Source of the DNA: an uncultured Pirellulaceae bacterium
Lineage (GTDB): Bacteria; Planctomycetota; Planctomycetia; Pirellulales; Pirellulaceae
Direction: 5' to 3'
DNA length: 64,000 nt
Assembly (NCBI GenBank): GCA_964577115.1
Contig: CAZNXJ010000002.1
Location: 252,285-316,284, forward strand
The notes below the pieces were generated by a model that was not told the origin of the DNA, did not search any database, and saw only the letters and a list, made by a program, of their open reading frames with translations. Position 1 is the stretch's first letter; each line of letters begins with the position of its first letter. The translations under genes and the position numbers were made by a program. This document shows, in pieces, positions 8,403 through 58,705 of the stretch.

Positions 8403-8541
8403 CGGCTGACGGAAGCGCTGAGTGGAGGAGGGGAGTGGACACTGAGGTCGGATGACAGGAAGTCGGCAGTCGCGACGGCACGTCGCGCTAGCGCGACTAG
8501 CTGAAGAGCGGCGCTGGAAGTGAGATGAAAGTGGGACGCGG

Positions 8542-38148: not shown

Positions 38149-38173
38149 CGGAACCGACGCAGCGAAAATTCCG

Positions 38174-38202
38174 CCCGAAGCGCTGGCCTCCAGCGCTTCG
38201 GG
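38174..38202 (+). terminator. GC-rich perfect hairpin (13-bp stem, 3-nt loop) 26 nt after the stop of the 1987-aa gene
   Basis: cccgaagcgctgg-cct-ccagcgcttcggg. No U-tract follows, so it is not a canonical intrinsic terminator. Confidence 0.35.
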
Positions 38203-38438
38203 CGTCCGGCGAGGGGAGGAGAACCTTGTCACTCGCAGTTCTTTGCGAGCGTTGGTGCGCGTTTTTCCTGGCGCGACTTGTTTCTATGAGGGGTGCGCGA
38301 TAGCCTGTACGCAGTCTTTGGGGCATCAACTGCGCTGAGTTGCGGTAAGCCAGGAACGGCTTGCTCGTTGCGGTGCGCCGCCGCGCGATAATGCCACGAG
38401 AACCCGTGATCGTGATACGCAGAAATTATCGCGTCATA

Positions 38439-38460
38439 TGCTGACAAGAATATGTCAGCA
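38439..38460. promoter_or_regulatory. Perfect 8-bp inverted repeat with 6-bp spacer (TGCTGACA-AGAATA-TGTCAGCA) in an AT-rich stretch about 20 bp upstream of the giant kinase start
   Basis: Read directly from the sequence. The local GC drop (38421–38470) is unusual for this genome. A TGACAAG half-site recurs at 38471–38477. Confidence 0.4.
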
Positions 38461-38480
38461 GACTAGCTCTGCATCTTGCC

Positions 38481-41400: not shown

Positions 41401-44400
41401 TTTCGCGCCATCACTCATTGCGAATTGACCACTGGGCAAATCGCGCAGCGTGGTCGCCCGACAGAAAGACCATCGCAGCGGCTTCGGATTTACCAGGTCC
41501 GGTGCAGCTCTATGATGCCGAGTCTGCTCGACCCCGAATGACGCTGGCTCGTCAAGATACCGAAATTTACGCTTTGGCCTTCTCGCCAGATGGACGCATG
41601 GTGGTCTCCGGCGGCGCCGACGCTAATGTCACCCTCTCGGATGCCGCCTCGGGCGAGACCATAAGTGTGTTGCGAGGACACATCGGTAGCGTTCTCGACT
41701 TAACGTTTTCACCCGACGGGAATCTTCTGGCTTCGGCCGCAACAGACGGTACTGTGCGCTTGTGGGACATTCCCGAAAGAAGGGAACGAGCTGTGTTCAG
41801 CGTCGGGAAAGACAAATCGATCACAACGGTTTGTTTTTCCCCCGATGGCCGCACACTCGTCGCGGTGGAAGGCGACCACCTCCACATTTGGCGAGCTGCC
41901 TCGGAGGACGACGTCGCGGCCCAATTGAGTAGGGAACGCGCGCTTCAGAATGTCAGCCGCCTCGAATTGTTGGAGAGCCTCGTACGTGGGCATGGGCGTC
42001 GTGATTTGGAACCGGATTTGGCGCACGCGATCTTCATGGAGGCCTACACGAACGTTATTCAAGGTGACATCAAAGCCGCCTCGGCCGCTCTCGAACGCGT
42101 GGAAGATTTGATCGAGAATGCGAAACCTCGGAACGAGGCGCTCGCTCTTCGCTGGCAGGAGCTCGCGTATTACATCGCCGAGCTCCGGCCGGCCATGCTG
42201 ATGGCAGAAGGACGCACACAGAAGGCGCAGGAAGCCCTGAAGGAGGCCTATCGGCTTTGGGGCGAATTTCCACAGGAACTGCAGCGGCGTCCTCTCGCCG
42301 GATTGGCTCTGCCCAACCGCGGAGAATTACGGCGTCAGCGGCTGGCCGCGGCCACAGAGGCCGAATTCGAACGCGCCGTTGCCGAGGAGTTTCTGTTCCA
42401 GAATCTTCCTCAGCCCGTCACGATCACGCTCGTGGATGGGACGACGCTCGTTTTGACAACTCCCCATGACGTCCCTGACGAGCCGTTCCATGTGCGCGAG
42501 ATTCGGCTGTGGTCGGATTCGGTAAGTGACGCCGATATCGAAATATTGGCTCGCCTGCCCGAGCTCGAGGCGCTCACGATTTTCGAATCGAACGAGACGC
42601 CGATCGACTCGGCGATTATTGACAAGCTTTCCCTACTGCGGCGACTGCGGCGACTGTCGCTCGACAAACTCTCAAGCCGCACATTGACCCACGTCGCGCA
42701 GCTCCGGCAGCTTGAGCAACTCACGCTGCGTGGTGCCGACCTCAGCCAGTTATCCGAGGATGACCTGGCCGCATTCGGGAGAATGGGAAACGTCCGATGG
42801 CTCGAACTCGATGGGACCGCTGCGAGTAACGAGCTCGTTAGGGCCATCGCCACGATGCCAAATCTCGAATACCTCAACCTCGCGAGAACTCCTGTAGCCG
42901 ACGAAGCGCTGCGGGAGCTCGCCGAGTGCTCAGGGCTGAAGTACTTGATTCTCGATAGCACACTGGTGAGCGACGAAGGGGTGATCGAGATTCTAACGCT
43001 CCCCAGTCTCCGCGAGCTCTTGCTCCGCGAGACGAACGTGACGGATGCGATCGTGGAGGCGGCGCTCCGCCGCGCGGAACCGCTTGACTATTTCGGGCTG
43101 AACGCAACGCGGGTGTCTTCCCGCGGCGTCGCACTGTTGCGGCACGCGTGGCCAAATTGTGAACTGTTCCATGATGCGAGCCCCGAGACGCGCAATGCCT
43201 CGCGCAGCTTCCCAGCGCTCGATACACTACGCCAACGGTTAAACGTGGTACGAGAGGAAATTGCGTCCGGCGCATCCACGGCGGCACGCTGGCGCTCGGA
43301 GCTCGTCCCGTGGCACTTTGCCGAGCAAGGAACGCCGCATGGTGTAGAGATCGCATCGCTTCTGCGCACCTTTCCCTGGCCACTGGACCAGCTCGAGCGA
43401 GCAGCACTAAGCGACGAGCAGCGGCGCATGATGGAAACGGTGGCGGGGCGCGTTCCCGAGGAACTTGTCGCCGTGTTCGGCGACGGCCGCCTCACGTTTT
43501 GGGGGGAAGGATTCGGACGAGCCGCCTTTGGGGAAAAGCATGTTGCAGTTTTGAGCTACAACGGTAACTACCAAGAATGGAACTCAGCCAACGGCCTGTT
43601 CGAACGTGTCGTCAAGGGCTGGCCGTCCGTGTGTGGGTTATCGCCCGACGGGTCGCTGGCTGCCTCCACTGATGAGAATACGCTCCGCGTCTGGGAGACC
43701 GCCGACGCGGCGGTCGTACGCGAGTGGGACGGTGTCGGGACCGTCCGGTTTGTCGCCTTCCGCCCCGGTGCCGATCAAATTGCGGTGGCCTTGGCTAACG
43801 GTCGCCTGAAGTTATACAGCTATGGAGATGTGACGGAGCCAATCGAAGTGCGGTCCGGAGGACCTGCGGCCGTCGCCGTCGATTTCGATCCGAGCGGCGA
43901 GTATTTGGTTGAACGTGACAGCGACATGGAACTCCGAGTCTGGCGTGTTCATCCATTGTCTGATCACCCTGCACCGATCGCATCCGTACGGACCCAGCAC
44001 GGCACCGATCGCGAAAATCGACTGCTCGCCGTTGCGCGCGACGCAAAAGTGATTGCTGTTGCGGGGACGTCGGCGATCGAACTTTACTTTGGTCATGATG
44101 GAACGCGGATTGGCCAAATCGATCTGCGGATGCTAAACCGCGACAATCGCCGACTCGATTTGCTCGATTCACTCGCCATCTCGCCGGATGGAAGTCTGCT
44201 TGTGGGCGGCGACAACTCGGGCCAGATCGGATTTTGGAGTGTTCCAGATGGTCAGAATCTGGGAATTATCCGCGAGCGCGTCAGCTGGGTGAACATTTTG
44301 GAATTCAGCGACGACGGCAAGCTGCTGGCCGCCGGCGGGCACGATAGCCTGACGCTCATCGACCCGGTACTACGGACAGTAGTCGCCCAGGCTGATCCGC

Positions 44401-45263
44401 TCGCCGGCGTGAACTCGCTCGTCGTCAGCCCTCAGGGCGACCAGGTTTTTGCCGGCAGCGTAGCCGTTACGGCCTGGCGCATTCCGGAAGGCTCCCCGGC
44501 AGGCCAAATGGGAGACCGATACTTTGCCACTGCACTGGCCAATCATGCGCAAGCGCCGGGGCTTTGGATATACCAGCTTTGGCAGATCAACCTGTTCAAT
44601 CCCCGCTCGATGAAGAGCCAACGCCAGCGAGCAATCCCGCTTCGTGTCGACGGACCGTTTACCATCAACTCCGCCGGGACCACCCTGGCTGTGGGAGGCC
44701 AGGAGCTTGAGCTGTGGGATTTGCAGACGGGGACGCGGCTCCCCAGTATTTCTCGGTCCGACGGCAAAGTTGTCGCCCTGGCGCTTAGCGATGACGGAAC
44801 GCTCATAGCCGCGTGTATCGAGCAGAACGATACGCAGCGTCTGGAGCTTTTTAATACCGTAAGCGGCAAGCTCATCCATTCGTTCGAAGTTCCGGAAGGT
44901 CAGCACTTAACCTGCCTGGCGTTCAGCCCCGACAGTCGAATATTGGTTGGCGCGGGCTGGGGCGGTCCGCCGCGGCGCTGGAAGGTGGACGACGGCAGCT
45001 CGCTATCGTCGCTCGATGCAGGGGAGGTGAGCGGCCTCGATTTTAGCCCCGATGGGCGCTGGCTTGCGGCGTTGGGACGCGACGAGACAATTCGGATCTG
45101 GGACGCCGTGACGGGCGAAGCGGCGCGGACCATTGCGCTTGGCGAGGATCTCTCGGATGCCTGGCTACGCTCATTAAGCTTTGCGCCCGACAGCCGGCAT
45201 TTGCTGGTCGGTACGGCCAGCGGCATGGTGCTCGTGTTTCGGATAGAAGAGCAAGGGAGATAG
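38481..45263 (+). CDS. Giant (2260 aa) membrane-anchored Ser/Thr protein kinase with zinc ribbon, WD40 beta-propeller arrays and an internal leucine-rich-repeat block
   Basis: Zinc ribbon CPHCHN...CESCG. Kinase motifs GVGAYGVVW, HRDLKPSNVLLD, DFGLAK, GTPAYMSPE. TM helix IAALATTVLVVLLTGIVVSGSF. Many SPDG/WD-like repeats. LRR region (~42470–43160) LRRLSLDKLS...LEYLNLARTPV...LRELLLRETNV. Confidence 0.85.
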   Translation: MTSARGRSEYLQQLVRQALKLPADQREAWLARRAGEDKRLLHELQVLLEKYDQPQTKAGPLDTIELPQPEAAPERPRGLRIHCPHCHNAVEVLKDADDALEQILCESCGSSFQIVEGRTTTYSSECRRIGRFTLVEQLGVGAYGVVWRGRDAELDREVAVKIPREGRLSPEEQAKFLREARAAAQLAHPHIVAVHEIGRDDGRLYIVSDLVRGLTLADWLTGQTASPRQAAEWCAKIADALDHAHQQGVVHRDLKPSNVLLDEQLEPRITDFGLAKRDAGEITMTIEGQVLGTPAYMSPEQARGSGHNADRRSDIYSLGVILFELLTGERPFRGNARMLIHQVLSEDAPSPRKLDASIPRDLETICLKCLEKDPAKRYSTARELAEELRRWLRGEPVLARPISRAARAVRWAHRNRAIAALATTVLVVLLTGIVVSGSFAVLANRHAQELQIALWNVDAQRSRADQQAAQAIARSEEARRERNRALQAEREMRRLLYQADMRNAFQALSDGNTGRVREHLLAHVPEPGQTDLRGWEWYHLWDRIHDYTTLLPHMPAVTSLAISKDGRYLASVDASWGMVRFWELPTGQLVSLIREATNLRHVEFSPDGTLLTAGKWDVTEAPIWNWQRGLPQTTLEAPASLFVSVAWHPAGNLLAGGSKYNGRIQLFDVSTGEVVRGMAVPTSTVGRITFSPDGSLLAARANSGEIHLIDMESGETRTTLPGSGGYGFEFFTLRFSADGERLVTSGPQGTHLWDVRSPGTSTQLEGHSAVNDAVFSPDGRIVYTAGDDGRVVAHRADNGQPLQAYLGHAQRARALVMSSDGKLLVSAGEDGLILVRDLARQTPTVIDQSLVLAHSPPNESPTSRSAAFLPDGRMISAWGKHIIIWNEKFTAPESLIDTGTSVHRFAVSPTGAICASYHLGDQRIALWDVAQGSHIGTLEARTHVNCLAFSPDGEQLLAGGRDRHGFVVWDLQTLSRHHSLRIDHWANRAAWSPDRKTIAAASDLPGPVQLYDAESARPRMTLARQDTEIYALAFSPDGRMVVSGGADANVTLSDAASGETISVLRGHIGSVLDLTFSPDGNLLASAATDGTVRLWDIPERRERAVFSVGKDKSITTVCFSPDGRTLVAVEGDHLHIWRAASEDDVAAQLSRERALQNVSRLELLESLVRGHGRRDLEPDLAHAIFMEAYTNVIQGDIKAASAALERVEDLIENAKPRNEALALRWQELAYYIAELRPAMLMAEGRTQKAQEALKEAYRLWGEFPQELQRRPLAGLALPNRGELRRQRLAAATEAEFERAVAEEFLFQNLPQPVTITLVDGTTLVLTTPHDVPDEPFHVREIRLWSDSVSDADIEILARLPELEALTIFESNETPIDSAIIDKLSLLRRLRRLSLDKLSSRTLTHVAQLRQLEQLTLRGADLSQLSEDDLAAFGRMGNVRWLELDGTAASNELVRAIATMPNLEYLNLARTPVADEALRELAECSGLKYLILDSTLVSDEGVIEILTLPSLRELLLRETNVTDAIVEAALRRAEPLDYFGLNATRVSSRGVALLRHAWPNCELFHDASPETRNASRSFPALDTLRQRLNVVREEIASGASTAARWRSELVPWHFAEQGTPHGVEIASLLRTFPWPLDQLERAALSDEQRRMMETVAGRVPEELVAVFGDGRLTFWGEGFGRAAFGEKHVAVLSYNGNYQEWNSANGLFERVVKGWPSVCGLSPDGSLAASTDENTLRVWETADAAVVREWDGVGTVRFVAFRPGADQIAVALANGRLKLYSYGDVTEPIEVRSGGPAAVAVDFDPSGEYLVERDSDMELRVWRVHPLSDHPAPIASVRTQHGTDRENRLLAVARDAKVIAVAGTSAIELYFGHDGTRIGQIDLRMLNRDNRRLDLLDSLAISPDGSLLVGGDNSGQIGFWSVPDGQNLGIIRERVSWVNILEFSDDGKLLAAGGHDSLTLIDPVLRTVVAQADPLAGVNSLVVSPQGDQVFAGSVAVTAWRIPEGSPAGQMGDRYFATALANHAQAPGLWIYQLWQINLFNPRSMKSQRQRAIPLRVDGPFTINSAGTTLAVGGQELELWDLQTGTRLPSISRSDGKVVALALSDDGTLIAACIEQNDTQRLELFNTVSGKLIHSFEVPEGQHLTCLAFSPDSRILVGAGWGGPPRRWKVDDGSSLSSLDAGEVSGLDFSPDGRWLAALGRDETIRIWDAVTGEAARTIALGEDLSDAWLRSLSFAPDSRHLLVGTASGMVLVFRIEEQGR

Positions 45264-45284
45264 CGCGGGGCGGCCGAGCGGAGA

Positions 45285-46976
45285 TCAATTTTCCGCGAAC
45301 TGCGCCATGTACTGCTTTTCGTTATCGGCACTGCCGATCAGAATCAAGCGCGCGTCTGGGGAAAGCCGTGTATCGGGCGGTGGATTGGCGATCATGTGCT
45401 CCCCCGTTCGAATCGCGACGACGTTGCAGCCGGTTGATTCACGGATGGAGGTCTCGCCGAGCGTGCGGCCGGCGAGCTTGGGCGGAACGTCGACCTCGAA
45501 AGCGCTGAGCCCCTCGGCCAGCAGCAAGACGTCGTGCCGCCGCAGCAGATTGAAAATGGCGTTCGCGCCGATCGATGCGTACGACATGACGAAATCAGCA
45601 CCCGCGCGGTGTAAAGTATCGACGTTGCGATCAACGGTCGAACGGCTGATGATCTGAATGTCCGGGCGCAGTCGCCGGCAATACAGCGTCAGGTACACAT
45701 TCATGTCGTCGTCGCTCGTCGTAATCACAACTGCGGGCGACTCCATCAGACCGCCGCGACGGAGCACGTGCAGATCCGCGGCGTTGCCGACGATGAGCCG
45801 GTCCGATGCCAAGCCTGCCTCCGGAGCGCGTTCAATGATCCGGTAGTCGACTTTCTGACGCGCTAGTTCCTCGGCGCACGCCTGGCCGACTCGTCCACCG
45901 CCGATGATCACTACCGGCGCGTCGATGGATCGATAGATGCAAAACAGCGCATCGTAGTCGTCCAGTTGTTCGCGCGTGCCGGCCAGCAGCAACACGGTGC
46001 TTGGCAAAATGCGTGTTTCGGGGCCGGCCGCACTGAACTCGCCACGCTCCCACACGCCTACGACGTTGACCTGGGCATGTTCAGGTAGCCGGATCTCGCG
46101 CAGCGTGCGGTTCACGAGCGGCGTATCGGCCGCAGCTGCCTCGGCGATCAAGACGCCGCCCACCTGACCAATCACGTGGCTCTTCGCGTCCCGCCCGAGC
46201 ACTCGCCGAGCAAGCCCGCGGCCCATCATCTGCGACAGTTCGAGCACACGGCTGCACCCGGCCATCTGAAGAATGTCCACCGAGGCGGCATCGCGCGCGG
46301 TTGCGACGATCGGCGTCCGTGCGGCTACGGACCGTGCGGTGAATGTGACGTTGGTATTGACCATGTCGCTCAGCGTCGTGGCGAGCAATGCCGCGTTGGG
46401 AAGACGCAGCCGTTCGTACGTCAGTGGATCGTCTCGTTCGCCCACAACCACATCGATGTCCGTGTCATGGAGCCGTAAGGCGGCTTCGACATCCGGCACC
46501 AAGACGACATAGGGATAATGACGCTGCTCGAGCAGACGAATCAGAGCGGTCTCGACGGGCCCGTAGCTCAGCAGCACCACATGCCCCGACACCTCGCGAG
46601 GAAGCTCGCGCGGGGCAAGCGCCGCGACCTGGGCCTGCATCCAGGGAGCGTAGAAGAACTCGATGAACGTAAACGGCAGGAGGACGAGCATGAACAGCGT
46701 GCCGCTCAGTAACACGACGATCGAAAACATGCGGCCCACGTCCGAATGGAACGTGATGTCGCCGAAGCCGAGCGTCGACATGACGGTCAGTGTCCAGTAC
46801 GCGCCCGTGATCCAGCTATACCTCCGCCCCTCCCACACCATGAGGAGGTGGAAGATCACGGTATAGACGAGCACCAGCACGGTCATCGCGAGCAGCAGGA
46901 ACCAAAGAATCCGGAGGTTGCGCTTCGCGGTGCGGGTAGCGAGTTGGTGTGTGAAGAGCGCGGGTAGGAATTTCAT
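45285..46976 (-). CDS. Two-TM potassium channel with tandem RCK (TrkA-N/TrkA-C) gating domains
   Basis: Pore helix and selectivity filter WTLTVMSTLGFGD. Two Rossmann RCK motifs, VVLLSYGPVETALIRLL and VVIIGGGRVGQACAEEL. Confidence 0.8.
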   Translation of the reverse strand: MKFLPALFTHQLATRTAKRNLRILWFLLLAMTVLVLVYTVIFHLLMVWEGRRYSWITGAYWTLTVMSTLGFGDITFHSDVGRMFSIVVLLSGTLFMLVLLPFTFIEFFYAPWMQAQVAALAPRELPREVSGHVVLLSYGPVETALIRLLEQRHYPYVVLVPDVEAALRLHDTDIDVVVGERDDPLTYERLRLPNAALLATTLSDMVNTNVTFTARSVAARTPIVATARDAASVDILQMAGCSRVLELSQMMGRGLARRVLGRDAKSHVIGQVGGVLIAEAAAADTPLVNRTLREIRLPEHAQVNVVGVWERGEFSAAGPETRILPSTVLLLAGTREQLDDYDALFCIYRSIDAPVVIIGGGRVGQACAEELARQKVDYRIIERAPEAGLASDRLIVGNAADLHVLRRGGLMESPAVVITTSDDDMNVYLTLYCRRLRPDIQIISRSTVDRNVDTLHRAGADFVMSYASIGANAIFNLLRRHDVLLLAEGLSAFEVDVPPKLAGRTLGETSIRESTGCNVVAIRTGEHMIANPPPDTRLSPDARLILIGSADNEKQYMAQFAEN

Positions 46977-47063: not shown

Positions 47064-50000
47064 TTAGGCGCGGTTCCGAGCGGCTTCCAGCTCGGCGAGA
47101 AGCCGCTGGTAGCTGGCCAGGCAGGTTTCGACCGATTGCTGGAGCCGAGTGACCTCGGCCGTTTGCCGTTCGGTCGATTGCTGCAGGGGCGCAAGCCACG
47201 CATTCATCAGCTCGAACTGCCGCTGAACGACCTCCAAAATCGAACGCGGCACCTTGTGCTGCACCACGACTTTGGAAATGGCCTTCCCGTCTGTCTCGGA
47301 CGGCGCGTCGCTGCCGGGCAACGCCGTTGGGCGAGCGATCGATTCGCGCAAGGCGCCGAGCTGCTCGGCGAGCGCATCCATCCGCGCGATGGTCAGCTGC
47401 TGATCGCCGTCCTGCTGAGCGAGGCGCGCGGTGGCGTCGATGACGGCTTTGCGGATCATTTCCAGGCCTTCGGTGACGCTGCCCAGCTGCGCGATGACGA
47501 GGCCCGCTTTATCGTCCGAACCAACGCCACGCAGCTTGAGGTTCTGCCGGAAGGCCCGGCAGATATCGTCCCAGCGCTGCTGCTGCTCGTCGGTCATGAT
47601 GCCCATGAGCTGCCGGAACTTCAGCAGATTCGCCTCGGTGTCGGCGGTCAGTGTCTGCGCGTCGTTCTCATAGTTCGAAACGATGAGCCCCGTCAGCTCG
47701 TCGTCGTTCATCATCGGCACTACTTTCTCGGCGATACGGTTCATGTTGCGGTACGAGCCCTGCAACTTGAACGGCGGCTCCGTGCGGTACTCGTCGGCTT
47801 GTGCCGCCGAGCGGATGTACTGCCGGTTGACGCGGAGCACCACATCGCGGACGCGCAGCAGCTTCTTCAGCACGGACACCGCGTCAGCAATCTCGTCGGG
47901 CGAGTAATTACCTTCCAGTTCGACGTCGCTCTGATTGCCCGTCGTGGCGATTTTTAGCAGCCCGTGGATATCCTGTGGATACCGCCCGACGATCTGGGCG
48001 AGCGTCGGGTTCGACATCATCGAGTTTTCGACGTAGCTCAGTTCGAAGACATCCTGCGTATCGCCAATGATTTCACCGAGATTGTAGATGTCGGCCCGGT
48101 TGGCCAGCATGTCCGGGATCTGGAACCGTTCGCCGCTTTCCGTGTACGGATTGCCCGCCATGACGACTGCCACCCGCCTGCCGCGCAGATCGTAGGTGCG
48201 CGAGCGGCCGCGGTAAACACCTTCGATTCTGCGCTGTGCGTCGCACAGCGAAATGAACTTCTGGAGTAGCTCGGGATGGCAATGCTGAATGTCGTCGAGG
48301 TACAGCATCACGTTGTCGCCCATCTCGAGTGCCAGGTTCAGACGCTCGAGCTCCTCCCGCGCCGCGGCATTGGTGGCCTCCGAAGGATCGATGGACGTTA
48401 CTCGGTGACCGATTGCCGGGCCATTGATTTTCACGAAGACGAGTCCGAGACGATTCGCCAGGTATTCCATCAGCGTCGTCTTGCCGTATCCCGGCGGAGA
48501 CACGAGCAGCAATAGCCCCATCCGCTCGGCTCGCTTCTGATCGCCCGCCGCGCCGATCTGTTTGGCCAGGTTGTCACCGATCAGCGGGAGATAAACCGAA
48601 TCGATGAGCTTGTTGCGGACGAATGACGACAGGACTTTGGCCTGGAAATCGGCGAGTCGCAGCCGCTCGCGCGCTTCGTCGATCAGTTCGCGTTTCCGCG
48701 CCGTGAGACGCGTGAATCGCGGCACGACGTCGGCCATGTACCGGCTGAGCTTATGGCAGAACGTGTTGTAATGGAGATCGTATGTGTGCTCTCGCACGAC
48801 CGGATGATCGCCCGCCATCGGGCTCAGCCGCCGCCGCAGCTCGCCGTCGCTGATCTTCGCGGCGTCGAGCTTTCCTTGGAGCAAGAGGACGGCGAATTCA
48901 TCCGCGTAGATCTCGTCGTCGCTCGTCGGGCGCCCCGCGAGAAACGCATTCGCCCAGTCGCGGGCAAGACGCAGCGAAGTGAGTGGGTGTTGCTGGACGG
49001 CGTGCAGCGACTTCTGAAAGGCTTCGGTGCCCTGGTGGGTACGGAGCTGCGCGTGAAATTCGTCGTACAGGTTGGCTGCGGTGCGACTGACAACGAACCC
49101 GACATCGCGAACACATTCGGCGTAAAGGTATTCCGCCGCCTCCCGCGCATGGGAACGATCGAACACACCGCTCCGCATGGCGAAGTCGTCGAGCGCTTCG
49201 GCTAGTTCCGCCACGTACGCGTCGCGCTGTTCAGGCCTCGGAAAATAACGTACGACCGCGCTGTGCCCTCGTAACAGGGCCGATAACCGCGACTTTTCGG
49301 CGGGCTCGCAGAAGTACGTCCAGTAGGCAACCGCCATGGCCCGTGCGGCCGGATGGTATCGAAGCAGTCCGGCGAGCGACCGCACTTCGGCGAGCGCATG
49401 CACCAGCAGGCTCGCGTCGACATCGTGCACGCCCTTCAAATAGCCTTCCTGGTAGCGCGGCCCCATGAATCGGCGGACCCATTCCAGTCGCTGCGCCTCG
49501 TCCATTTGCATGATGGCCGCGAGCGTCGGGCCTTCGGGCGTATCGATCGTCTGTAGTAGTTGATACGCCAGGTACTCGGCGCGGTACACCTGCGAGTTTT
49601 CCGAGACAAGCTCCTGCGACCAAAGGTCGCGCGCCGCATCGAGCGCTGGATCGTCAATCGGTTCGAAGTAGTTCGTCCCGGTCAGGTGAATATGCATCCG
49701 GTTGTCGCGGACGATAAGCGTCACGTCGAGCGGCTGCGTGTTGACAGAGAAGCGGTGCCGGCCGAGCTGAATGGTGTTCTCGCCGGCGACAAACAGGTCC
49801 TGCCGGTCGCGAAGCTGCCGCAGCCCGTCCTCGCGCAGGGCCTTCAGCCGGCTTTGTAGCTCGTCGACTTTGACGCTGTCTTCGAGCTCGGTGAGCTGCC
49901 GGATGATGTCGCGGACTTTTTCGACCATCAGGTCGGACGCGAAGTAGCCATTGATTTCGCTGACCGACTGAAGCGTATCGATCCGCGACTTCATGCCCTT

Positions 50001-52394
50001 GAGGATGCGATCGGCCGCGCTCATCAGCGCGCCGGCTCGCTTGTTCCGCGCCTCGATGAGCGCCAGCTTCCGAGCTTCGAATGCGCTATAGGTTTCCTCG
50101 CGCTTTTCCGCTAGCTGCACGACGAACTCGTCGAACTCGGCGAAGCGTCCTTCGAGCTCCTCGATCTGGACCGCCAGCTTCGTCAAAAACTCGTCACAGC
50201 GTGGCGGCGAATCGCACATTTCGAGATAATTGACGACGGACTGGTTCAGCAGCTTGAGCTGTGCGTGGAATTCGGCCGCGCCTTCTGCCGACTGGAGCTC
50301 CTTCGTGCGGCTCTTGATTCGCGCCCGTGTATGGTTCAGTCGCGCGAACAGGGCGGAGATCGCGTCGATAATCGCCGTCCGCTGCGTCGCATCTTCGATT
50401 TTCAGATTGCTGACCACGTCGATCAGCATTTCCAGATCCGCGGCGCCGCGCGTAACGTCTTCGTCCAGCTTCTTGGCTTCGACCACGGTCGCGAGGCTAT
50501 CGATCTGTTCGGCCTGCTGGCTGATCCGCTGCTCGTAGGGATCGAGCGCCGTGGATTCCAAAAGGAACGCAACACAGCGGTGCGCCAGCCGGTCGGTATC
50601 TTCGGCGACGTGCTTTTCGAGCTTTTCAACGGTCGCCACGTCAACGTACCGGAGCTCGCGGAGACCAATCACTTCGCCCCGCAGGCGGCGCAGTTCGGTC
50701 AGCGACGAGACGAACTCATCGATTGACGCAAAGCGGCGGCGATGGACGGCCGCGATCGTCTCGGCGACCTGCTTCTGCATCGCCGCGGTTTGCTGCGCCG
50801 TATTGCGCCGCACGCGGACGACTTTTTCAAATTCCTCAACGGCCGCAGCCGCAGTATCGCGGATTTGCAGCAGCGGCTCGGCCAGGTTGAACGTTTCCTC
50901 CCGGCCGATCCAGAAATAGGCGTCGATGATTTCGCCGCACAGCTTCGCCAGGTCTACGTACAAATTGGAGTACGTATCGCCTTTGGCAAGCAACCCCAGG
51001 ACGGCGTTGCACTCGGCCATCCCGCGTACGATATCGCGGTTGCCGACTTTGTAGACGAGCGATTCCGTGTCGCTGACCGGTAGCGGCAAATCCTCCGAAA
51101 CGTAGGGCGTCCGCCAGATCTGTAAGGCATGGTGCTTTTGCGGTTCGTCCTGTCGCTTGAAACAGATCAGTTCACCGCCGTGCAGCAGCGTTGCGCCATG
51201 GCAGATTAGCGGCGAGCTGACCTGCTGCTCGATCATGTTGTACTCGAGCAGCACGACCTCGCCGGAAACGAGGTTTCGGAAAACGTAGAGAAAATCTTCG
51301 CCGTTCGGTGCGGCGATCCGGCGCTCGAACACGAGATCGTCGGGGACGTTTTCGAAGATTTTGCAGTCACCGGTCTGGAGGTAGAAGCCGTTCGGAAAGA
51401 TGAGCCCGTGATCGTCGGGCAGCAGGACGCACGCGTGCTCGACGGCATCCCACCGCCGCGCTTCCTGAGTTTTCTCGTTGTAGACGATGTGGCGGTATTC
51501 GTTTTCCTTGTACGGGCGAATGCGCAGCAGGATCAAGTTGCCAATGATCGCGTAGTAGATCTCGGCATCGTCCAGCGTCTGATCCTTCTCGCGGACTTCC
51601 TCGCTGTAGATACCCTCGCCGGTGTCCGTGTTGTTTTCGATCTTGATCGTCAAGTCGCCGCCGACCGTTTCGACGAATAAGCGATCTTCGATGGCGACGT
51701 GCGGATGAAGGCCGAAGTGATGCTGATCGCGCGTGGTGCGGATCCACTCGAACTCGTGTTGCGGAGGTAGGCGGACCTCGTGGTCGCTGCGGTTGTCGAT
51801 ATAGATCAGCTCGTCGCCCGCCACCTGCCACTTGAGCGCCTTGATGTCCCCGGTCGTACGGCCGACCTGAAACACCATGTACAGCAGCGCGCCATCGCGG
51901 AAGAAACGCAGGAAGGTGGCGTTTTTGTAATAGCGGTAGATCTCACTGAAGTCGCGTTGAAAGTTGCCGTCCTCGAGTATGTCCAAAGGCAGCTCGTGGA
52001 AGACATTATCGCGCAGCTCATAGATGCCAAACACGTCGGCCGGTTCGGTCGTGGCCTTGAGACCGAAGCGGACGTTGTATCCGAACAGGAAGCGCGTCTT
52101 CAGCGCGGCGACGTCGCGCGGCACGCAGTTGTGGACCGTCGTGATCCGTTCGGTCGCCAGCAAGGTCGATTCGATGGAACCGAAGACTTCGCGCCGCTTG
52201 TTGTTCAGCTTGTCGAGGCGCGTGCGCAGTTGATCGGCGTAGGACTTGAGCCGGGATTGAATGATTTCGTAGGAGCCGCCTTCCAGCTGCACCTGCCCGG
52301 AGGCCCCCGAGTCCGGCTCGGTTGCGGTCGTCGCCATCGTTGTGCTCTCGCTGCTGGATCCACAAAGGACCTGGATGACGCGCTGGGGCGTCAT
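47064..52394 (-). CDS. Giant (1776 aa) protein with a single MoxR-like AAA+ ATPase module and long coiled-coil regions; no recognised family
   Basis: Walker A LLLLVSPPGYGKTTLMEYLA (~48500), Walker B VMLYLDDIQH, and a sensor region VAVVMAGNPY...RFQIPDMLANRADIYNL resembling MoxR/AAA_5. The first ~1200 aa and the last ~300 aa are unassigned. An alternative start is 52337. Confidence 0.7.
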   Translation of the reverse strand: MTPQRVIQVLCGSSSESTTMATTATEPDSGASGQVQLEGGSYEIIQSRLKSYADQLRTRLDKLNNKRREVFGSIESTLLATERITTVHNCVPRDVAALKTRFLFGYNVRFGLKATTEPADVFGIYELRDNVFHELPLDILEDGNFQRDFSEIYRYYKNATFLRFFRDGALLYMVFQVGRTTGDIKALKWQVAGDELIYIDNRSDHEVRLPPQHEFEWIRTTRDQHHFGLHPHVAIEDRLFVETVGGDLTIKIENNTDTGEGIYSEEVREKDQTLDDAEIYYAIIGNLILLRIRPYKENEYRHIVYNEKTQEARRWDAVEHACVLLPDDHGLIFPNGFYLQTGDCKIFENVPDDLVFERRIAAPNGEDFLYVFRNLVSGEVVLLEYNMIEQQVSSPLICHGATLLHGGELICFKRQDEPQKHHALQIWRTPYVSEDLPLPVSDTESLVYKVGNRDIVRGMAECNAVLGLLAKGDTYSNLYVDLAKLCGEIIDAYFWIGREETFNLAEPLLQIRDTAAAAVEEFEKVVRVRRNTAQQTAAMQKQVAETIAAVHRRRFASIDEFVSSLTELRRLRGEVIGLRELRYVDVATVEKLEKHVAEDTDRLAHRCVAFLLESTALDPYEQRISQQAEQIDSLATVVEAKKLDEDVTRGAADLEMLIDVVSNLKIEDATQRTAIIDAISALFARLNHTRARIKSRTKELQSAEGAAEFHAQLKLLNQSVVNYLEMCDSPPRCDEFLTKLAVQIEELEGRFAEFDEFVVQLAEKREETYSAFEARKLALIEARNKRAGALMSAADRILKGMKSRIDTLQSVSEINGYFASDLMVEKVRDIIRQLTELEDSVKVDELQSRLKALREDGLRQLRDRQDLFVAGENTIQLGRHRFSVNTQPLDVTLIVRDNRMHIHLTGTNYFEPIDDPALDAARDLWSQELVSENSQVYRAEYLAYQLLQTIDTPEGPTLAAIMQMDEAQRLEWVRRFMGPRYQEGYLKGVHDVDASLLVHALAEVRSLAGLLRYHPAARAMAVAYWTYFCEPAEKSRLSALLRGHSAVVRYFPRPEQRDAYVAELAEALDDFAMRSGVFDRSHAREAAEYLYAECVRDVGFVVSRTAANLYDEFHAQLRTHQGTEAFQKSLHAVQQHPLTSLRLARDWANAFLAGRPTSDDEIYADEFAVLLLQGKLDAAKISDGELRRRLSPMAGDHPVVREHTYDLHYNTFCHKLSRYMADVVPRFTRLTARKRELIDEARERLRLADFQAKVLSSFVRNKLIDSVYLPLIGDNLAKQIGAAGDQKRAERMGLLLLVSPPGYGKTTLMEYLANRLGLVFVKINGPAIGHRVTSIDPSEATNAAAREELERLNLALEMGDNVMLYLDDIQHCHPELLQKFISLCDAQRRIEGVYRGRSRTYDLRGRRVAVVMAGNPYTESGERFQIPDMLANRADIYNLGEIIGDTQDVFELSYVENSMMSNPTLAQIVGRYPQDIHGLLKIATTGNQSDVELEGNYSPDEIADAVSVLKKLLRVRDVVLRVNRQYIRSAAQADEYRTEPPFKLQGSYRNMNRIAEKVVPMMNDDELTGLIVSNYENDAQTLTADTEANLLKFRQLMGIMTDEQQQRWDDICRAFRQNLKLRGVGSDDKAGLVIAQLGSVTEGLEMIRKAVIDATARLAQQDGDQQLTIARMDALAEQLGALRESIARPTALPGSDAPSETDGKAISKVVVQHKVPRSILEVVQRQFELMNAWLAPLQQSTERQTAEVTRLQQSVETCLASYQRLLAELEAARNRA

Positions 52395-52441
52395 CCAGGT
52401 CTTTACCGTGCTTTCCGCGTCATCCGTGGATTACGGAGGGG

Positions 52442-54508
52442 CTACGTGCGTTCGGAGCTGCCGGCTAGCCGACTTTTGCCCGCCGCATCGCGGCCTCCAA
52501 CGGCATCCTCGAAGCTTTGGTGCGACAATCCCGAGTTGTGCGCGAAGCCGAGCATCCGCTCGAGTTCGCTGCGCAGTTCGTCGGTCTTGGCGAGCCCCAG
52601 CATTTTGCCGATCAACGCGGCGATCGAAAGGTCGCGGACGTCGGACGAGTCGATCTTAAACTGCTCGATCAACGACTGGAGCTTGTCCCGGAAGTAGTCC
52701 GGATTGCCGTTGAAGAACGAGTTCTTGATGTCGGTCAACGTCTCGCTGTTGTGGATCAGCCGATCGACGGACTTGCCGTTCTGGATCGAGTTGATGATGC
52801 GATCGAAGAACGTGCTTTCGCCACCCACGATATCGATCCGGGCGTTCTTGAGGCCTTCCGAAACGATGATGCTCTGCGCCTCGGCGATCTCACGCTGCGC
52901 TTGAATGGCTGCGATCTGGATATCGCGATCCTTGTTCAACCGCAGCTTGAACTCTTCGTGTTCTTTGCCGACGCTGTCGAGCAGCTTCATGGCGTTGGCC
53001 TTCTGCTCGATGCCTTCGGCTTCGCTGAGGTACTTGATGCGCATCACGTTGGCCTCGGCCTGGCCCTGTTTCTCGATCGCTTCGGCCTTCGCGATCTGGA
53101 TCTGGGCTTCGGCCAGGCCCTCGGCGGCCGCTTCGGCTTGCTTGGCTTCGGCCAGCATCTTGGCGGCGTGCGTCTGCTTCTCCGCTGCCGCACGCTTCGC
53201 CTCGGCCTCGATGACGATCTGTTCGGCGATCAGTGCGGCCGCCGTCTTCGCCGCTTCGGCCGCCTTGATCTCGCGAATCAAAGCTTCCTGCGCCTGCATT
53301 TCGGCTTCGGTGATCTTCACGGCCTTGAGCCGATTTGCGCCGGCCAGTTCTTCCGTGTCGAGGATCTTTTGCTGTTCTTCGACAACGGATCGTTCGACCA
53401 TCACCCGCTCGCGGATCACTTCCTGCATCGAACGCTTCTCGACTTCGAGCGACTTGTCCTTGTCGATTTGCTTGAGGGCAACGAGCCGTTCGCGTTCGGT
53501 CGCTTCCAACTCGCGGTCCCGCGCCACGCGTTCCGTTTCGACCTGTTCCGTGCGTTCTTTATTTTTCTGAGCGACGACGATTTGCCGCAGCTTGTTCTCT
53601 TCGGCGATCTGCACGGCTTCTTCGGTCTGGATCCGAGCCGTCTCGGCCTTGAGCCGCTCTTCTTGTTGGACGCGGATGGCCTGAGCCTGCTCGCGCGCGG
53701 CGATCTCCGCGATTTCCCGGCGCTGTTTCTCTTCGGCCTCAATTTGCTGACGTTCGAGCGCGAGGATTGCTTCCCGCGCCTCGACGTCCTGCTTTGTAAT
53801 CGTTTTCTCTTTTTCCCGCGTGATGCTGTTCGCCAGGATGTGCTCGCGGGCCGTCAGATCGGTAATCTTCTTGATGCCTTCGGCATCAAGAATGTTGTTC
53901 GGGTTGAGTTTCTCGAGCGGCGTTTGCTCGAGGTAGTCGATCGCGCAGTCGTCCAGAACGTAACCGTTCAGGTCGGTACCAATGACCTTGAGAATCTCTT
54001 CCTTGAACCGGTCTCGCTCGTTGTACAGCTCGACGAAATCGAACCGTTTACCGACCGTTTTCAAGGCTTCGGAAAATTTCGCATCGAATAGTTCAACAAG
54101 CGCCTGCCGCTCGGACGCGCGGCGGCAGCCCAGCATTTGAGCGACTTGGAGGATGTCCTCGGTCGTGTTGTTTACGCGCACGAAAAACGCAACTTCGATG
54201 TCGGCGCGGATGTTGTCGCGGCAAATGAGTCCCGCTTCCCCTCGGCGCTGAATCTCGATCCGCTTGACTGAGAGGTCCATCTCCTCGACGCGGTGCAGGA
54301 TCGGGATGATAAACATGCCCGAGCCGCTCTTGGCACGCAGGGCTCCGCCGCCGGACACGACAAGCGCCGTTTCGGGGCCTACCTTGCGATAGAAGCGCGC
54401 CAGCAGCACGGCTAAACCGAGCAGCGCCAGAAAGATCGCTCCCACGACAATCGCCACATAAGGGACAATTGAGGGAGGGGACTGGGCAAATACGAGTGCG
54501 TAGGTCAT
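52442..54508 (-). CDS. SPFH/band-7 flotillin-like protein (FloT/YqiK family) with a long EA-rich coiled-coil
   Basis: N-terminal TM VAIVVGAIFLALLGLAVLLA, SPFH block, and a flotillin-type E/A/K/Q-rich heptad region (AEAKRAAAEKQTHAAKMLAEAKQAEAAAEGLAEAQIQIAKAEAIEKQGQAEA). The start was chosen at MTYALVF (54508), which overlaps the NfeD stop (ATGA). The upstream 129 codons of the listed ORF overlap the NfeD gene. Confidence 0.8.
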   Translation of the reverse strand: MTYALVFAQSPPSIVPYVAIVVGAIFLALLGLAVLLARFYRKVGPETALVVSGGGALRAKSGSGMFIIPILHRVEEMDLSVKRIEIQRRGEAGLICRDNIRADIEVAFFVRVNNTTEDILQVAQMLGCRRASERQALVELFDAKFSEALKTVGKRFDFVELYNERDRFKEEILKVIGTDLNGYVLDDCAIDYLEQTPLEKLNPNNILDAEGIKKITDLTAREHILANSITREKEKTITKQDVEAREAILALERQQIEAEEKQRREIAEIAAREQAQAIRVQQEERLKAETARIQTEEAVQIAEENKLRQIVVAQKNKERTEQVETERVARDRELEATERERLVALKQIDKDKSLEVEKRSMQEVIRERVMVERSVVEEQQKILDTEELAGANRLKAVKITEAEMQAQEALIREIKAAEAAKTAAALIAEQIVIEAEAKRAAAEKQTHAAKMLAEAKQAEAAAEGLAEAQIQIAKAEAIEKQGQAEANVMRIKYLSEAEGIEQKANAMKLLDSVGKEHEEFKLRLNKDRDIQIAAIQAQREIAEAQSIIVSEGLKNARIDIVGGESTFFDRIINSIQNGKSVDRLIHNSETLTDIKNSFFNGNPDYFRDKLQSLIEQFKIDSSDVRDLSIAALIGKMLGLAKTDELRSELERMLGFAHNSGLSHQSFEDAVGGRDAAGKSRLAGSSERT

Positions 54509-55155
54509 GCCTTCACCTCTTCTTCGACGTGGGGCTGTTGAACTTTTTCGACGTAATAAATGAGCGTGGCGGGGTCGTAGTCCACGATGCGAGCGCGATC
54601 GCCGCGCGTCAGCACGCCGCTGCGCGACCGGACGTGTAGCAGTAGCGGTGCGCCTTCCGTGGGGAGTTTGGCCTGCCCGTGCTGGTCGGTTACCTCGGAT
54701 GTCGAGATCGTACAGATCTCGCCAACCAGGTCCTTCGACCGGCGCAGCTCCGTGCGGTCGACCAGGCGGGTCATCGGTTGAGTGATCAGCTTGGTTGCCA
54801 GCAGCGCGACCGCTCCGTTGCGCAGCATCGTCTGTAGGGCAATCCAGTTGTCCTTGTTGGCCGCCGGTTCGTGCCAGAGAACCGACGTCAGCCACCAGGC
54901 GAGGGCAAATACCGTCATCCAGAGCATTAAGGGAATCGAGCCCAAATTTAGGAAGCGCAGGACGATCGCCCCGGACCCGGCAAACCAGCCGGAATGGGAT
55001 CCTGCATCTGCGTCCACATCGATCTCGAAAACGTCAAACATTTCGAGATCCAGTGCGCCGAGAATGACAAACGCCCAGTAGATGCTGACGAGGATCAGCA
55101 TCAGGGATGCGGGTAACGCCGGGCCCGAAAAGCAGGTATGCAGGATGTCGCTCAT
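54505..55155 (-). CDS. NfeD/YqiJ-like membrane protein (flotillin partner) with a C-terminal OB-fold
   Basis: TM segments LMLILVSIYWAFVILGAL and LMLWMTVFALAWWL, plus a C-terminal beta-barrel signature GEICTISTSEVTDQHGQAKL...GDRARIVDYD. Internal start at MSDIL; the listed ORF extends to 55323. Confidence 0.7.
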   Translation of the reverse strand: MSDILHTCFSGPALPASLMLILVSIYWAFVILGALDLEMFDVFEIDVDADAGSHSGWFAGSGAIVLRFLNLGSIPLMLWMTVFALAWWLTSVLWHEPAANKDNWIALQTMLRNGAVALLATKLITQPMTRLVDRTELRRSKDLVGEICTISTSEVTDQHGQAKLPTEGAPLLLHVRSRSGVLTRGDRARIVDYDPATLIYYVEKVQQPHVEEEVKA

Positions 55156-58084: not shown

Positions 58085-58705
58085 CTAATCGGGCGCGCTC
58101 GAGTCTTCGTGAAATATTTCACGAAGACGCTGGAGGCCCCGTTTGATCAGCCCGGCGACGGCCAGTTCCGATCGTTTCATTTCTCCGGCAATTTCCCGCA
58201 GGGTATGGCCTTCGAGGTGCCGCAGGCGCACGGCTTCCTGCTGGTCGGGTGGGAGCTGGCCGATGGCCTGCGCCAACCGAATAGCCGCTTCGCCCCGCAT
58301 CGCCCGCTGGCTGGGGCTTGACCAATCGGCGGCGAGGTAGTTGGCCAGCGCCTGTCGATCGGGCCCGGTTTCATCGAGCGACCGTTCTTTGTTGGCGGAC
58401 CGTTTCTTGGCGATGACGTGCCGTTGGATGGTCTGGTAGACGTTATTTTGAAGAATCTTTCCGAGCCACGCGACGAGTTCGTCTTCGGACGAGCCGCGGA
58501 ATCCTCGCAGGTCGCGCTGGGCTTCGAGCAGCGTTTGCTGCACGAGGTCGGAGGCATCGACACGCGCGCGCAGCCGGCCGACGAGCCGGCGTTTGGCCAG
58601 CAGGTACAAGTAATCGCGGTACTCGTGGAGCAAACGCCCCATGGCTTCCGCGTCACCGGCCTGAGCGCGTCGCAGGAGGGATTCGTCGAACACAGCGCGT
58701 GACAC
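58085..58705 (-). CDS. ECF-type RNA polymerase sigma-70 factor
   Basis: Region 2 (LLHEYRDYLYLLAKRRL...DLVQQTLLEAQRDL) and region 4 HTH (QQEAVRLRHLEGHTLREIAGEMKRSELAVAGLIKRGLQRLRE). Confidence 0.85.
   Translation of the reverse strand: MSRAVFDESLLRRAQAGDAEAMGRLLHEYRDYLYLLAKRRLVGRLRARVDASDLVQQTLLEAQRDLRGFRGSSEDELVAWLGKILQNNVYQTIQRHVIAKKRSANKERSLDETGPDRQALANYLAADWSSPSQRAMRGEAAIRLAQAIGQLPPDQQEAVRLRHLEGHTLREIAGEMKRSELAVAGLIKRGLQRLREIFHEDSSAPD

Follow-up and report, generated by a model that had tools for sequence, protein, structure and literature searches.

The giant ATPase gene comes third in a conserved cassette, after the genes for a YqiJ/NfeD-like protein and a YqiK-type flotillin (Table 1). 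Its product is most likely a cytoplasmic AAA+ remodeller or chaperone that acts on the flotillin assembly and in the handling of membrane stress. Both the gene arrangement and the architecture of the ATPase have already been published (PMC11237479), so the value of the locus lies in follow-up experiments rather than in discovery. The ATPase itself is a member of an already recognised family with the domain combination DUF3686 + DUF7902 + AAA. The stretch of DNA analysed here, 64 kb in length, is referred to as the window.

Table 1. Positions of the cassette genes, the domains of the ATPase and the intergenic hairpin in the window.
Feature	Position (nt)	Strand	Remarks
YqiJ/NfeD-like small inner-membrane protein, 216 aa	54505..55155	(-)	First cassette gene
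YqiK-type flotillin, 688 aa	52442..54508	(-)	Second cassette gene
Perfect 14-bp stem-loop, flotillin-ATPase intergenic	52368..52401	(-)	RNA fold
Giant cytoplasmic AAA+ ATPase ORF, 1776 aa	47064..52394	(-)	Third cassette gene
Divergent beta-propeller, aa 77-428	51111..52166	(-)	Core of DUF3686 (aa 56-494)
Spectrin-like helical bundle array, aa 446-866	49797..51059	(-)	Includes DUF7902 (aa 616-699)
Beta unit aa 874-912, all-helical middle aa ~938-1175, linker helix aa 1209-1244	48660..49775	(-)	
MoxR-like AAA+ module, aa 1294-1560	47715..48515	(-)	C-terminal third of protein
C-terminal helical extension and variable coiled coil, aa 1561-1776	47067..47714	(-)	AlphaFold2 model

The ATPase ORF has no internal stop over 1776 aa, and its product aligns over 98–99% of its own length with more than 100 homologues of 1750–1890 aa; the gene is therefore real and intact. 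The true start is probably M20 (ATG at 52337), giving a protein of 1757 aa, since this is where homologues begin, the residue is almost invariant, and the initial ATG of the ORF falls within a 14-bp RNA stem. No hydrophobic transmembrane segment was found by a segment scan of the protein, which is soluble. More than 4137 full-length-type homologues are present in the database, and their source records call them 'DNA repair ATPase' or 'MoxR-like ATPase'. Around 1000 cluster representatives (50% identity) match with E ≤ 1e-10, and across them the N-terminal 1200 aa are kept as one unit. Within Planctomycetota the cassette occurs broadly and near-uniformly (55–76% identity). No experiment on any member of the family was found in the literature.

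The sequence-only reading of this ORF had proposed a single MoxR-type AAA+ module in a scaffold, and this was borne out, the scaffold being very large and non-catalytic. There is one P-loop (Walker A, SPPGYGKTT, aa 1299–1307, nt 48474–48500), followed by Walker B (VMLYLDD, aa 1362–1368, with LYLDD at 1364–1368), a beta-hairpin (aa 1389–1402) ahead of sensor 1 (N1415, in GNP), the Arg finger R1433, the lid, and R1549 of a GSYR motif as the putative sensor 2. Across 46 homologues with 30–51% identity to the query, SPPGYGKT, the DD of Walker B, GNP, R1433 and GSYR are invariant, and the P-loop and Walker B picked out beforehand (GYGKTT and hhhhDD) correspond to SPPGYGKTT and VMLYLDD. Pfam matched AAA_5 (E 2.3e-7, 31.4 bits, cut-off 22), with generic AAA close behind (27.5 bits), and gave no match to AAA_3. 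The closest solved folds to the AAA+ core and lid are those of the MoxR ATPases CbbQ (PDB 6l1q) and NorQ (PDB 9qh4), at a sequence identity of 13–16%, and PDB searches with the single sequence and with a 46-member profile returned only P-loop-level matches (p97, RuvB, Rix7) and no solved relative. A match to a characterised family that might have overturned the proposal did not emerge: the family is a recognised one (DUF3686/DUF7902), and the layout of midasin and dynein, with six AAA+ modules in one chain, is absent from a protein that has one P-loop module.

Both CbbQ and NorQ work with VWA partners. The protein could, on this model, be a classical MoxR-type chaperone that matures, or inserts a cofactor into, some enzyme complex, with its VWA/MIDAS partner encoded elsewhere and its position next to a flotillin gene incidental. 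The nearness of the core to these two ATPases, the AAA_5 match and the name 'MoxR-like ATPase' given by JGI to some homologues are in keeping with such a role, but we regard it as improbable. The likeness to CbbQ and NorQ lies in the fold of the AAA+ core and lid. MoxR proteins are stand-alone rings of about 270–350 aa (a typical size is also given as about 300–500 aa), whereas the giant ATPase has 1757–1776 aa, five times the MoxR size, with its module confined to aa 1294–1560; ahead of this module, 1290 residues of propeller and helical domains form an N-terminal fusion, and evolution has kept the additional 1300 residues together as one unit. MoxR proteins also act through a separate VWA/MIDAS adaptor (CbbO, NorD), and none is encoded beside the giant ATPase: the neighbouring ORFs and the other scanned ORFs of the window contain no VWA domain, as had been noted for the adjacent genes, and about 80 loci show no VWA gene among their conserved neighbours. 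The flotillin gene, meanwhile, is adjacent across six or more phyla, which is not incidental.

Two AlphaFold2 models of the ATPase (pLDDT 85 and 81) give a domain order of N-terminal helix, divergent beta-propeller, spectrin-like helical bundles, helical middle domain, MoxR-like AAA+ module and variable coiled coil. The non-catalytic scaffold had been called otherwise unassigned, a description that does not hold: DUF3686 matches aa 56–494 over profile positions 2–448 of 448 (E 3.5e-183), DUF7902 matches aa 616–699 (E 1.6e-27), and the architecture appears in PMC11237479. The Pfam check gave matches for the N-terminal part, and the middle region (aa 874–1244) was left with no Pfam match and no recognised family. 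Ahead of the propeller is a long helix (aa 36–71). The propeller itself is modelled with about 26 strands at a pLDDT of mostly 85–95, and propellers were the sole matches when it was compared with the PDB by Foldseek (IFT-A at 5.6e-7, Elp1, the 6-bladed CyRPA, the clathrin terminal domain and prolyl oligopeptidase), all with TM ≤ 0.38. Its polar residues E265, Q272, D276, E297, R301, R314, D316, E366, D367 and H422 are invariant or nearly so. The impression that the N-terminal ~1200 residues are beta-rich is correct for the propeller and for the small unit at aa 874–912, whereas aa 446–866 and about 938–1245 are helical in the AlphaFold model; the middle region has a pLDDT of ~90 and moderate conservation. 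The last 300 aa, for which a coiled coil had been proposed, are helical, and the final ~120 aa are of low confidence and poorly conserved. In the C-terminal extension the pLDDT drops to 30–60 beyond aa ~1660, conservation is 0.18–0.5, and the last ~120 aa are unmatched in the Bacteroidota and Verrucomicrobiota loci, the planctomycete ATPase thus differing from the Bacteroidota version by an extra C-terminal coiled coil of about this length.

According to the database names, the protein would be a DNA-repair ATPase of the SMC/Rad50/SbcC kind, a reading that is hardly credible. It draws on Pfam, where DUF3686 is described as an 'ATPase involved in DNA repair', on the NCBI name 'DNA repair ATPase' and on a weak PADLOC match of the helical stretch aa 621–855 to the SMC-like LmuB (E 3.9e-4). 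However, SMC, Rad50 and SbcC form an ABC head from N- and C-terminal halves that are split by an antiparallel coiled coil, whereas the NTPase here is a contiguous, C-terminal AAA+ module, and the N-terminus is a helix and propeller. No nuclease or DNA-binding domain was detected in the ATPase by Pfam, its conserved neighbours are all membrane-scaffold genes, and no mention of DUF3686 (PF12458) was found in the literature. Most likely, the name derives from coiled-coil similarity; the label, which has spread to thousands of proteins, is unfounded.

The earlier search for a partner was right about the missing VWA gene but overlooked the YqiJ/NfeD-like and flotillin genes immediately upstream. 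The 216-aa protein has N-terminal transmembrane helices (hydrophobic segments at aa 11–40 and 64–94) and an OB-like domain at its C-terminus, with an acidic loop as a further element. It matches Pfam YqiJ_N (E 7.7e-5; 23.3 bits, cut-off 23), and a profile of 22 orthologues matched E. coli YqiJ over its full length in hhalign (probability 96.5%, E 8e-10). A profile search also gave a weak match to the OB domain of YuaF (PDB 2k14, E 0.41). By these profile matches the protein is assigned to the NfeD/YqiJ family. The flotillin begins with a transmembrane helix (aa 10–41) and an SPFH domain, continues as a long coiled coil rich in Glu and Ala, and ends in a conserved domain; its start is confirmed by a 100% identical database protein of 688 aa (P0121). 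A 24-orthologue profile aligned with E. coli YqiK in hhalign (probability 100%, E 9.2e-41, 30% identity, 372 columns), and homologues carry the source names 'flotillin family protein' or 'YqiK'. Hmmscan of the single sequence gave no match to Pfam Band_7, a PDB sequence search gave no match, and a profile matched the QmcA coiled coil only (E 0.0025). The alignment with E. coli YqiK settles the homology, and the protein belongs to the flotillin/YqiK (SPFH2) family. The idea of a distinctive C-terminal extension in ATPase-linked flotillins, relative to E. coli YqiK, drew no clear support from hhalign and was dropped. The ATG of the flotillin gene (54508–54506) overlaps the stop codon of the upstream gene (54507–54505) in an ATGA. 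The yqiJ-yqiK genes of E. coli and yuaF-floT of B. subtilis are homologues of the first two cassette genes but are not accompanied by an ATPase gene, and yqiK in E. coli is followed by sibD/ibsD.

Of 73 loci with at least 1 kb of upstream DNA, 67 have a flotillin gene upstream of the ATPase gene in the same orientation, and where at least 4 kb was available a tblastn match to the small protein lies upstream of the flotillin gene (49 of 59 loci). Flotillin-ATPase loci occur in Planctomycetota, Verrucomicrobiota, Kiritimatiellota, Bacteroidota, Omnitrophota, Hydrogenedentes and Desulfobacterales (six or more phyla). The Bacteroidota cassette is a form extended upstream by CesT-like and PspA/IM30 genes, with PspA_IM30 (E 9e-44) directly upstream in 13 loci and CesT_Tir_1 (3e-53) in 9–10, while the window carries the abbreviated form, with no match to PspA or CesT anywhere in it. 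Apart from these genes, about 80 loci show no conserved gene beside the ATPase and no conserved fourth gene downstream of it. Since no flotillin gene adjoins the ATPase gene at three loci for which 5.5 kb of upstream sequence is available (L026, L049 and L081), and many flotillin operons (e.g., E. coli yqiJK) are without the ATPase, it is an accessory, non-obligate part of flotillin operons. Two other neighbours in the window were rejected as cassette members, namely a downstream K+ channel gene (45285–46976), which is found in 0 of about 80 loci and sits in a 15-kb insertion absent from close relatives, and an upstream Ser/Thr kinase gene, which is syntenic in close relatives only.

The same arrangement was described by comparative genomics as a CesT/Tir-PspA-YqiJ/YuaF-flotillin-(beta-propeller + coiled coil + AAA+ ATPase) operon (Ravi et al., mSystems 2024, PMC11237479), with the neighbourhood of ANH61663.1 in Dokdonia donghaensis as prototype. 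That study, which is computational only and comes without structure or mechanism, proposes sub-membrane assembly and remodelling, and mentions 'abbreviated operons' without CesT and PspA. The window has this abbreviated, three-gene form, lacking CesT, PspA and the divergent HTH-peptidase regulator, and both forms are represented among the loci examined here. The same authors raised ESCRT-like analogies and suggested that abbreviated operons use PspA encoded elsewhere, which, together with the 13 Bacteroidota loci where PspA shares the operon and the recruitment of PspA by an SPFH protein in B. subtilis (PMC8581546), would suit a Vps4-like motor that disassembles PspA/IM30 (bacterial ESCRT-III) polymers, the flotillin being merely a PspA-recruiting membrane platform. 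We consider this unlikely, although it deserves some weight. An AAA+ motor coupled to a membrane-remodelling polymer is common to Vps4/ESCRT-III and the operon that contains PspA, but PspA is not a constant partner of the giant ATPase, and Vps4 is a classical-clade AAA protein with a MIT domain, in contrast to the MoxR-like core, propeller and spectrin-like arms found here.

The explanation we favour, which we hold to be somewhat better than an even bet, is that of a three-gene cassette in which the ATPase remodels the flotillin scaffold, its clients or PspA by ATP hydrolysis. The flotillin and its NfeD partner would build an oligomeric scaffold of the usual SPFH type at the inner membrane, on its cytoplasmic side, and the confinement of unfolded proteins by flotillin and NfeD is described in PMC11222466. 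The AAA+ module would mediate oligomerisation of the ATPase, probably into a hexamer as in other MoxR-type ATPases. The propeller and helical arms, standing in for the separate VWA adaptor of classical MoxR ATPases, may dock the protein on the flotillin assembly, on the clients that it retains or, in operons that include PspA, on PspA polymers. It is the order of the genes that suggests a physical contact between ATPase and flotillin. Hydrolysis of ATP could then drive protein remodelling, disassembly or extraction in the maintenance of the envelope under membrane stress.

A precedent for the genetic and functional coupling of an SPFH-family scaffold with an AAA+ ATPase at the inner membrane is provided by the HflK/C cage, which encloses the AAA+ protease FtsH (PMC13220708). 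FtsH is a membrane-anchored, classical-clade AAA protease encoded outside the hflKC operon, whereas the giant ATPase is soluble, MoxR-like, without a protease domain, and co-operonic with a flotillin-type (SPFH2) protein and its NfeD partner. A narrower proposal, that the ATPase is a dedicated ATP-driven motor for the assembly and disassembly of flotillin cages, whose propeller and spectrin-like arms grip the dome or trapped clients, is tentative, with the chances somewhat against it. If it is true, flotillin-type SPFH scaffolds would have their first energy-dependent regulator, and the ATPase would be a machine of the MoxR lineage with fused domains in place of the VWA adaptor. A co-operonic AAA+ motor conserved in six or more phyla is the obvious candidate for the missing energy-dependent step of flotillin scaffolds, be it assembly, opening or recycling, and it offers a genetic handle on flotillins in tractable Planctomycetota or Bacteroidota.

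The 15-kb insertion that adjoins the ATPase gene encodes a DUF4011 helicase-nuclease and a kinase-WD40 giant. Its proximity, and the frequent occurrence in conflict systems of large NTPases that carry propellers and coiled coils, might point to a role in anti-phage defence or another kind of conflict system built on a membrane scaffold, with the ATPase as effector or sensor. This is very doubtful: the cassette stands in conserved chromosomal synteny in close relatives that do not have the insertion, the cassette contains no nuclease or toxin domain, and its near-uniform presence in Planctomycetota is that of a housekeeping accessory. PADLOC gave no significant match, and a defence role was rejected because the matches (mad8 and LmuB) were sub-threshold.

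The gap between the flotillin and ATPase genes contains a perfect stem-loop that encloses the first ATG of the 1776-aa ORF. The RNA fold of 52330–52445(-) has a predicted energy of -46.6 kcal/mol (z -3.58), and none of 200 shuffles was as stable. Strong stem-loops (z ≤ -3, mononucleotide shuffles) occur at the equivalent position in 20 of 38 related loci with a gap of 30–400 nt. The hairpin is a candidate attenuator or transcript stabiliser that could set the ratio of flotillin to ATPase expression, and its recurrence 3' of the flotillin gene suggests production of the scaffold in excess over the motor.

By its sequence, the giant AAA+ ATPase ORF is a real, intact gene, since it is unbroken over 1776 residues and more than 100 database proteins of 1750–1890 aa (54–76% identity) align over 98–99% of its length. 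The true product is probably 1757 aa, starting at the ATG at 52337, because homologue N-termini lie 19 residues downstream of the first Met of the ORF, at a nearly invariant M20, and the first ATG falls within a perfect 14-bp RNA stem (residue numbers below are those of the 1776-aa ORF). Since no hydrophobic segment was found in it, the protein should be cytoplasmic. Its single P-loop is SPPGYGKTT (aa 1299–1307) and its Walker B motif is VMLYLDD (aa 1362–1368), in line with the sequence-only reading; in 46 aligned family members, whose identity to the query goes down to 30%, GNP (N1415), R1433 and GSYR (R1549) are invariant.

While these sequence details were largely right, the description of the remainder as an unassigned scaffold was not: Pfam DUF3686 ('ATPase involved in DNA repair') matches end to end at aa 56–494 (E 3.5e-183) and DUF7902 at aa 616–699 (E 1.6e-27), with weak AAA_5 and AAA matches at aa 1295–1419. 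Two AlphaFold2 models based on 62-sequence alignments, covering aa 1–875 (pLDDT 85) and aa 860–1776 (pLDDT 81), gave the domain layout in the table. The ~1200 N-terminal residues had been called beta-rich, but predicted beta structure there is limited to two units, with helices elsewhere. Three of the parts could be identified by structure searches. The only Foldseek matches of the larger beta unit were beta-propellers (IFT-A, Elp1, CyRPA, clathrin terminal domain and prolyl oligopeptidase; E 6e-7 to 1e-3, TM ≤ 0.38), and on the model it is a divergent propeller. The fold supports the 'MoxR-type' call for the AAA+ module by a modest margin; in sequence there is P-loop similarity only, beyond which no solved relatives were found. 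In the ATPases of Bacteroidota and many Verrucomicrobiota, including those of loci L018–L020, L026, L027, L031, L034, L036 and L038 (L-numbers label related loci in other genomes), the match to the window protein ends at about aa 1650, and the alignments indicate that the ~120-aa coiled coil at the C-terminus is confined to versions of the Planctomycetota-like lineage.

Features of the ATPase locus and its surroundings (nucleotide positions in the window; aa positions in the ATPase ORF)
Feature	Position	Strand	Description
YqiJ/NfeD-like gene	54505..55155	-	216 aa: two to three TM segments, C-terminal OB-like region
Flotillin gene	52442..54508	-	688 aa: N-terminal TM helix, SPFH-like region, long Glu/Ala-rich coiled coil
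Stem-loop	52368-52401	-	Between flotillin and ATPase genes
ATPase ORF	47064..52394	-	1776 aa
Long N-terminal helix	aa 36-71		AlphaFold2
Beta-rich domain	aa 77-428		AlphaFold2; ~26 strands
Helical-bundle array	aa 446-866		AlphaFold2
Small beta unit	aa 874-912		AlphaFold2
All-helical middle domain, then linker helix	aa ~938-1175		AlphaFold2
AAA+ alpha/beta core, lid, helical extensions	aa 1294 to ~1620		AlphaFold2; beta-hairpin before sensor 1
Terminal coiled coil	C-terminal end		AlphaFold2; poorly predicted and poorly conserved
Kinase-TAXI gene	55724-57871	-	Ser/Thr kinase fused to TAXI/NMT1-type solute-binding domain
ECF sigma factor	58085-58705	-	Precedes kinase-TAXI gene
Insertion	32185-46976		~15 kb
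Insertion gene 1	within 32185-46976		1987 aa: DUF4011, SF1 helicase, MTES_1575 nuclease, DUF3320
Insertion gene 2	within 32185-46976		2260 aa: Ser/Thr kinase, multiple WD40 propellers
Insertion gene 3	within 32185-46976		K+ channel, two RCK (TrkA_N/TrkA_C) pairs
Redox gene cluster	5405-14074		

The decisive context, missed by the sequence-only reading, lies outside the coordinates of the ATPase gene and is a pair of genes directly upstream on the same strand. Pfam alone detected almost nothing in their products. An orthologue profile of the 688-aa protein matched E. coli YqiK, a flotillin (hhalign probability 100%, E 9.2e-41), and that of the 216-aa protein matched its NfeD-type partner YqiJ (96.5%, E 8e-10). 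Database sources name homologues of the former 'flotillin family protein' or 'YqiK', and its start is confirmed by a 688-aa entry of 100% identity; the automatic ORF bounds of 817 and 272 aa were over-extended. The YqiJ/NfeD-like stop codon and the flotillin start codon share bases as ATGA (54505–54508), an overlap which suggests translational coupling of the two genes. This membrane-protein neighbourhood, together with an NTPase that is AAA+ and not ABC, contradicts the 'DNA repair' label, a name that probably stems from coiled-coil similarity (cf. the weak LmuB match at aa 621–855). A role in defence found no support from PADLOC or from synteny in two close relatives (L084 and L085).

A scan for ATPase loci, with one genome per species, gave at least 568, and the 80 kept for analysis came from Planctomycetota (Pirellulales, Planctomycetales, Phycisphaerae), Verrucomicrobiota, Kiritimatiellota, Bacteroidota (Hymenobacter, Pontibacter, Tenacibaculum, Lewinella and others), Omnitrophota, Hydrogenedentes and Desulfobacterales. 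Of the 73 loci with 1 kb or more of DNA upstream, 67 have a flotillin gene there in the same orientation, and a YqiJ-like gene was detectable in 49 of the 59 with at least 4 kb. Three loci (L026, L049 and L081), each with 5.5 kb of upstream sequence, have neither flotillin nor NfeD gene adjacent; in L026 the ATPase ORF looks broken up and is possibly a pseudogene. Clustering of all neighbouring ORFs found no conserved gene downstream of the ATPase, and upstream an extension specific to Bacteroidota, consisting of PspA/IM30 (13 loci, Pfam E 9e-44), a CesT/Tir-like protein (9–10 loci, E 3e-53) and a divergently transcribed HTH-S24 regulator (7 loci). The possibility that the ATPase is a motor for PspA only loses weight, since PspA is an inconstant neighbour. 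A classical MoxR–VWA system is also weakened, because no VWA gene was found in the conserved neighbourhood of the kept loci or among the window ORFs scanned, in agreement with the earlier remark that no VWA partner gene is adjacent.

In the window, the spacer between the flotillin and ATPase genes carries the perfect stem-loop that holds the long ORF's first ATG (z -3.6), and 20 of 38 related loci whose spacers measure 30–400 nt have strong stem-loops (z ≤ -3) at the matching position, across several phyla (L001, L006, L008, L018, L021, L023, L050, L067, L073 and others). These are candidate attenuators or stabilising 3' ends that would set the ratio of scaffold proteins to motor, with the scaffold proteins the more abundant. 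Many Bacteroidota and some Verrucomicrobiota have 0.6–1.5 kb of variable genes between the two (L020, L040, L044, L056, L058, L061, L062, L065, L066 and L069). Among these are small ORFs of lipoprotein-like character, and L040 and L044 have ORFs resembling IS200/RAYT-type transposases by an HxH motif; the cassette apparently tolerates insertions at this point.

Exactly this operon was described by Ravi et al., mSystems 2024 (PMC11237479; preprint 2020) as CesT/Tir–PspA plus three further genes, one encoding a YqiJ/YuaF 3TM protein, and the gene order of Dokdonia donghaensis in their supplementary table is that of the Bacteroidota loci found here. The window locus thus adds a planctomycete case to the abbreviated form, without CesT and PspA genes, of a published and purely computational operon class. 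It will not surprise specialists in PSP and flotillin comparative genomics. Literature searches found no paper naming DUF3686 and no experimental characterisation of the operon or ATPase family. The locus would serve well for experiments on what powers the flotillin scaffolds of bacteria.

SPFH proteins are described as large oligomeric scaffolds on membranes; HflK/C is described as working with the AAA+ protease FtsH (PMC13220708), flotillin and NfeD have been reported to confine unfolded proteins (PMC11222466), and recruitment of PspA by an SPFH protein has been reported in B. subtilis (PMC8581546). From the architecture of the ATPase, its intact catalytic motifs, and its operonic coupling to the flotillin/NfeD pair across phyla and to PspA in one phylum, we infer a mechanism whose most economical form we rate slightly above even. 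The soluble ATPase would oligomerise via its MoxR-like module and dock on the flotillin assembly via its propeller and spectrin-like arms, these fused domains taking the place of the VWA adaptor found in classical MoxR systems, and the energy of ATP hydrolysis would go into remodelling the scaffold, its clients or PspA in membrane-stress handling. The data do not separate scaffold disassembly, client extraction and a PspA motor as variants of this mechanism.

The kinase-TAXI gene that immediately precedes the cassette shows conserved synteny in L084 and L085 only, and not in other phyla; together with the ECF sigma factor it may provide local regulatory input. In the window, a K+ channel gene follows the ATPase gene; none of the related loci has it. 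It belongs, with the helicase-nuclease and kinase-WD40 genes, to an insertion relative to L084 and L085 (67% identity), which have a SurA_N-like gene at that site, and all three were rejected as cassette members. A dip in plus-strand AT-skew (-0.30) at 52000–54000 reflects the Glu/Ala/Lys-rich flotillin coiled coil encoded on the minus strand, and was rejected as a replication or mobile-element signal. The redox gene cluster, unrelated to the flotillin cassette, encodes Nuo51-like FMN, NuoG-like Fe-S and 20-kDa subunits, a NiFe-hydrogenase large subunit and a 1211-aa pyruvate:ferredoxin oxidoreductase.
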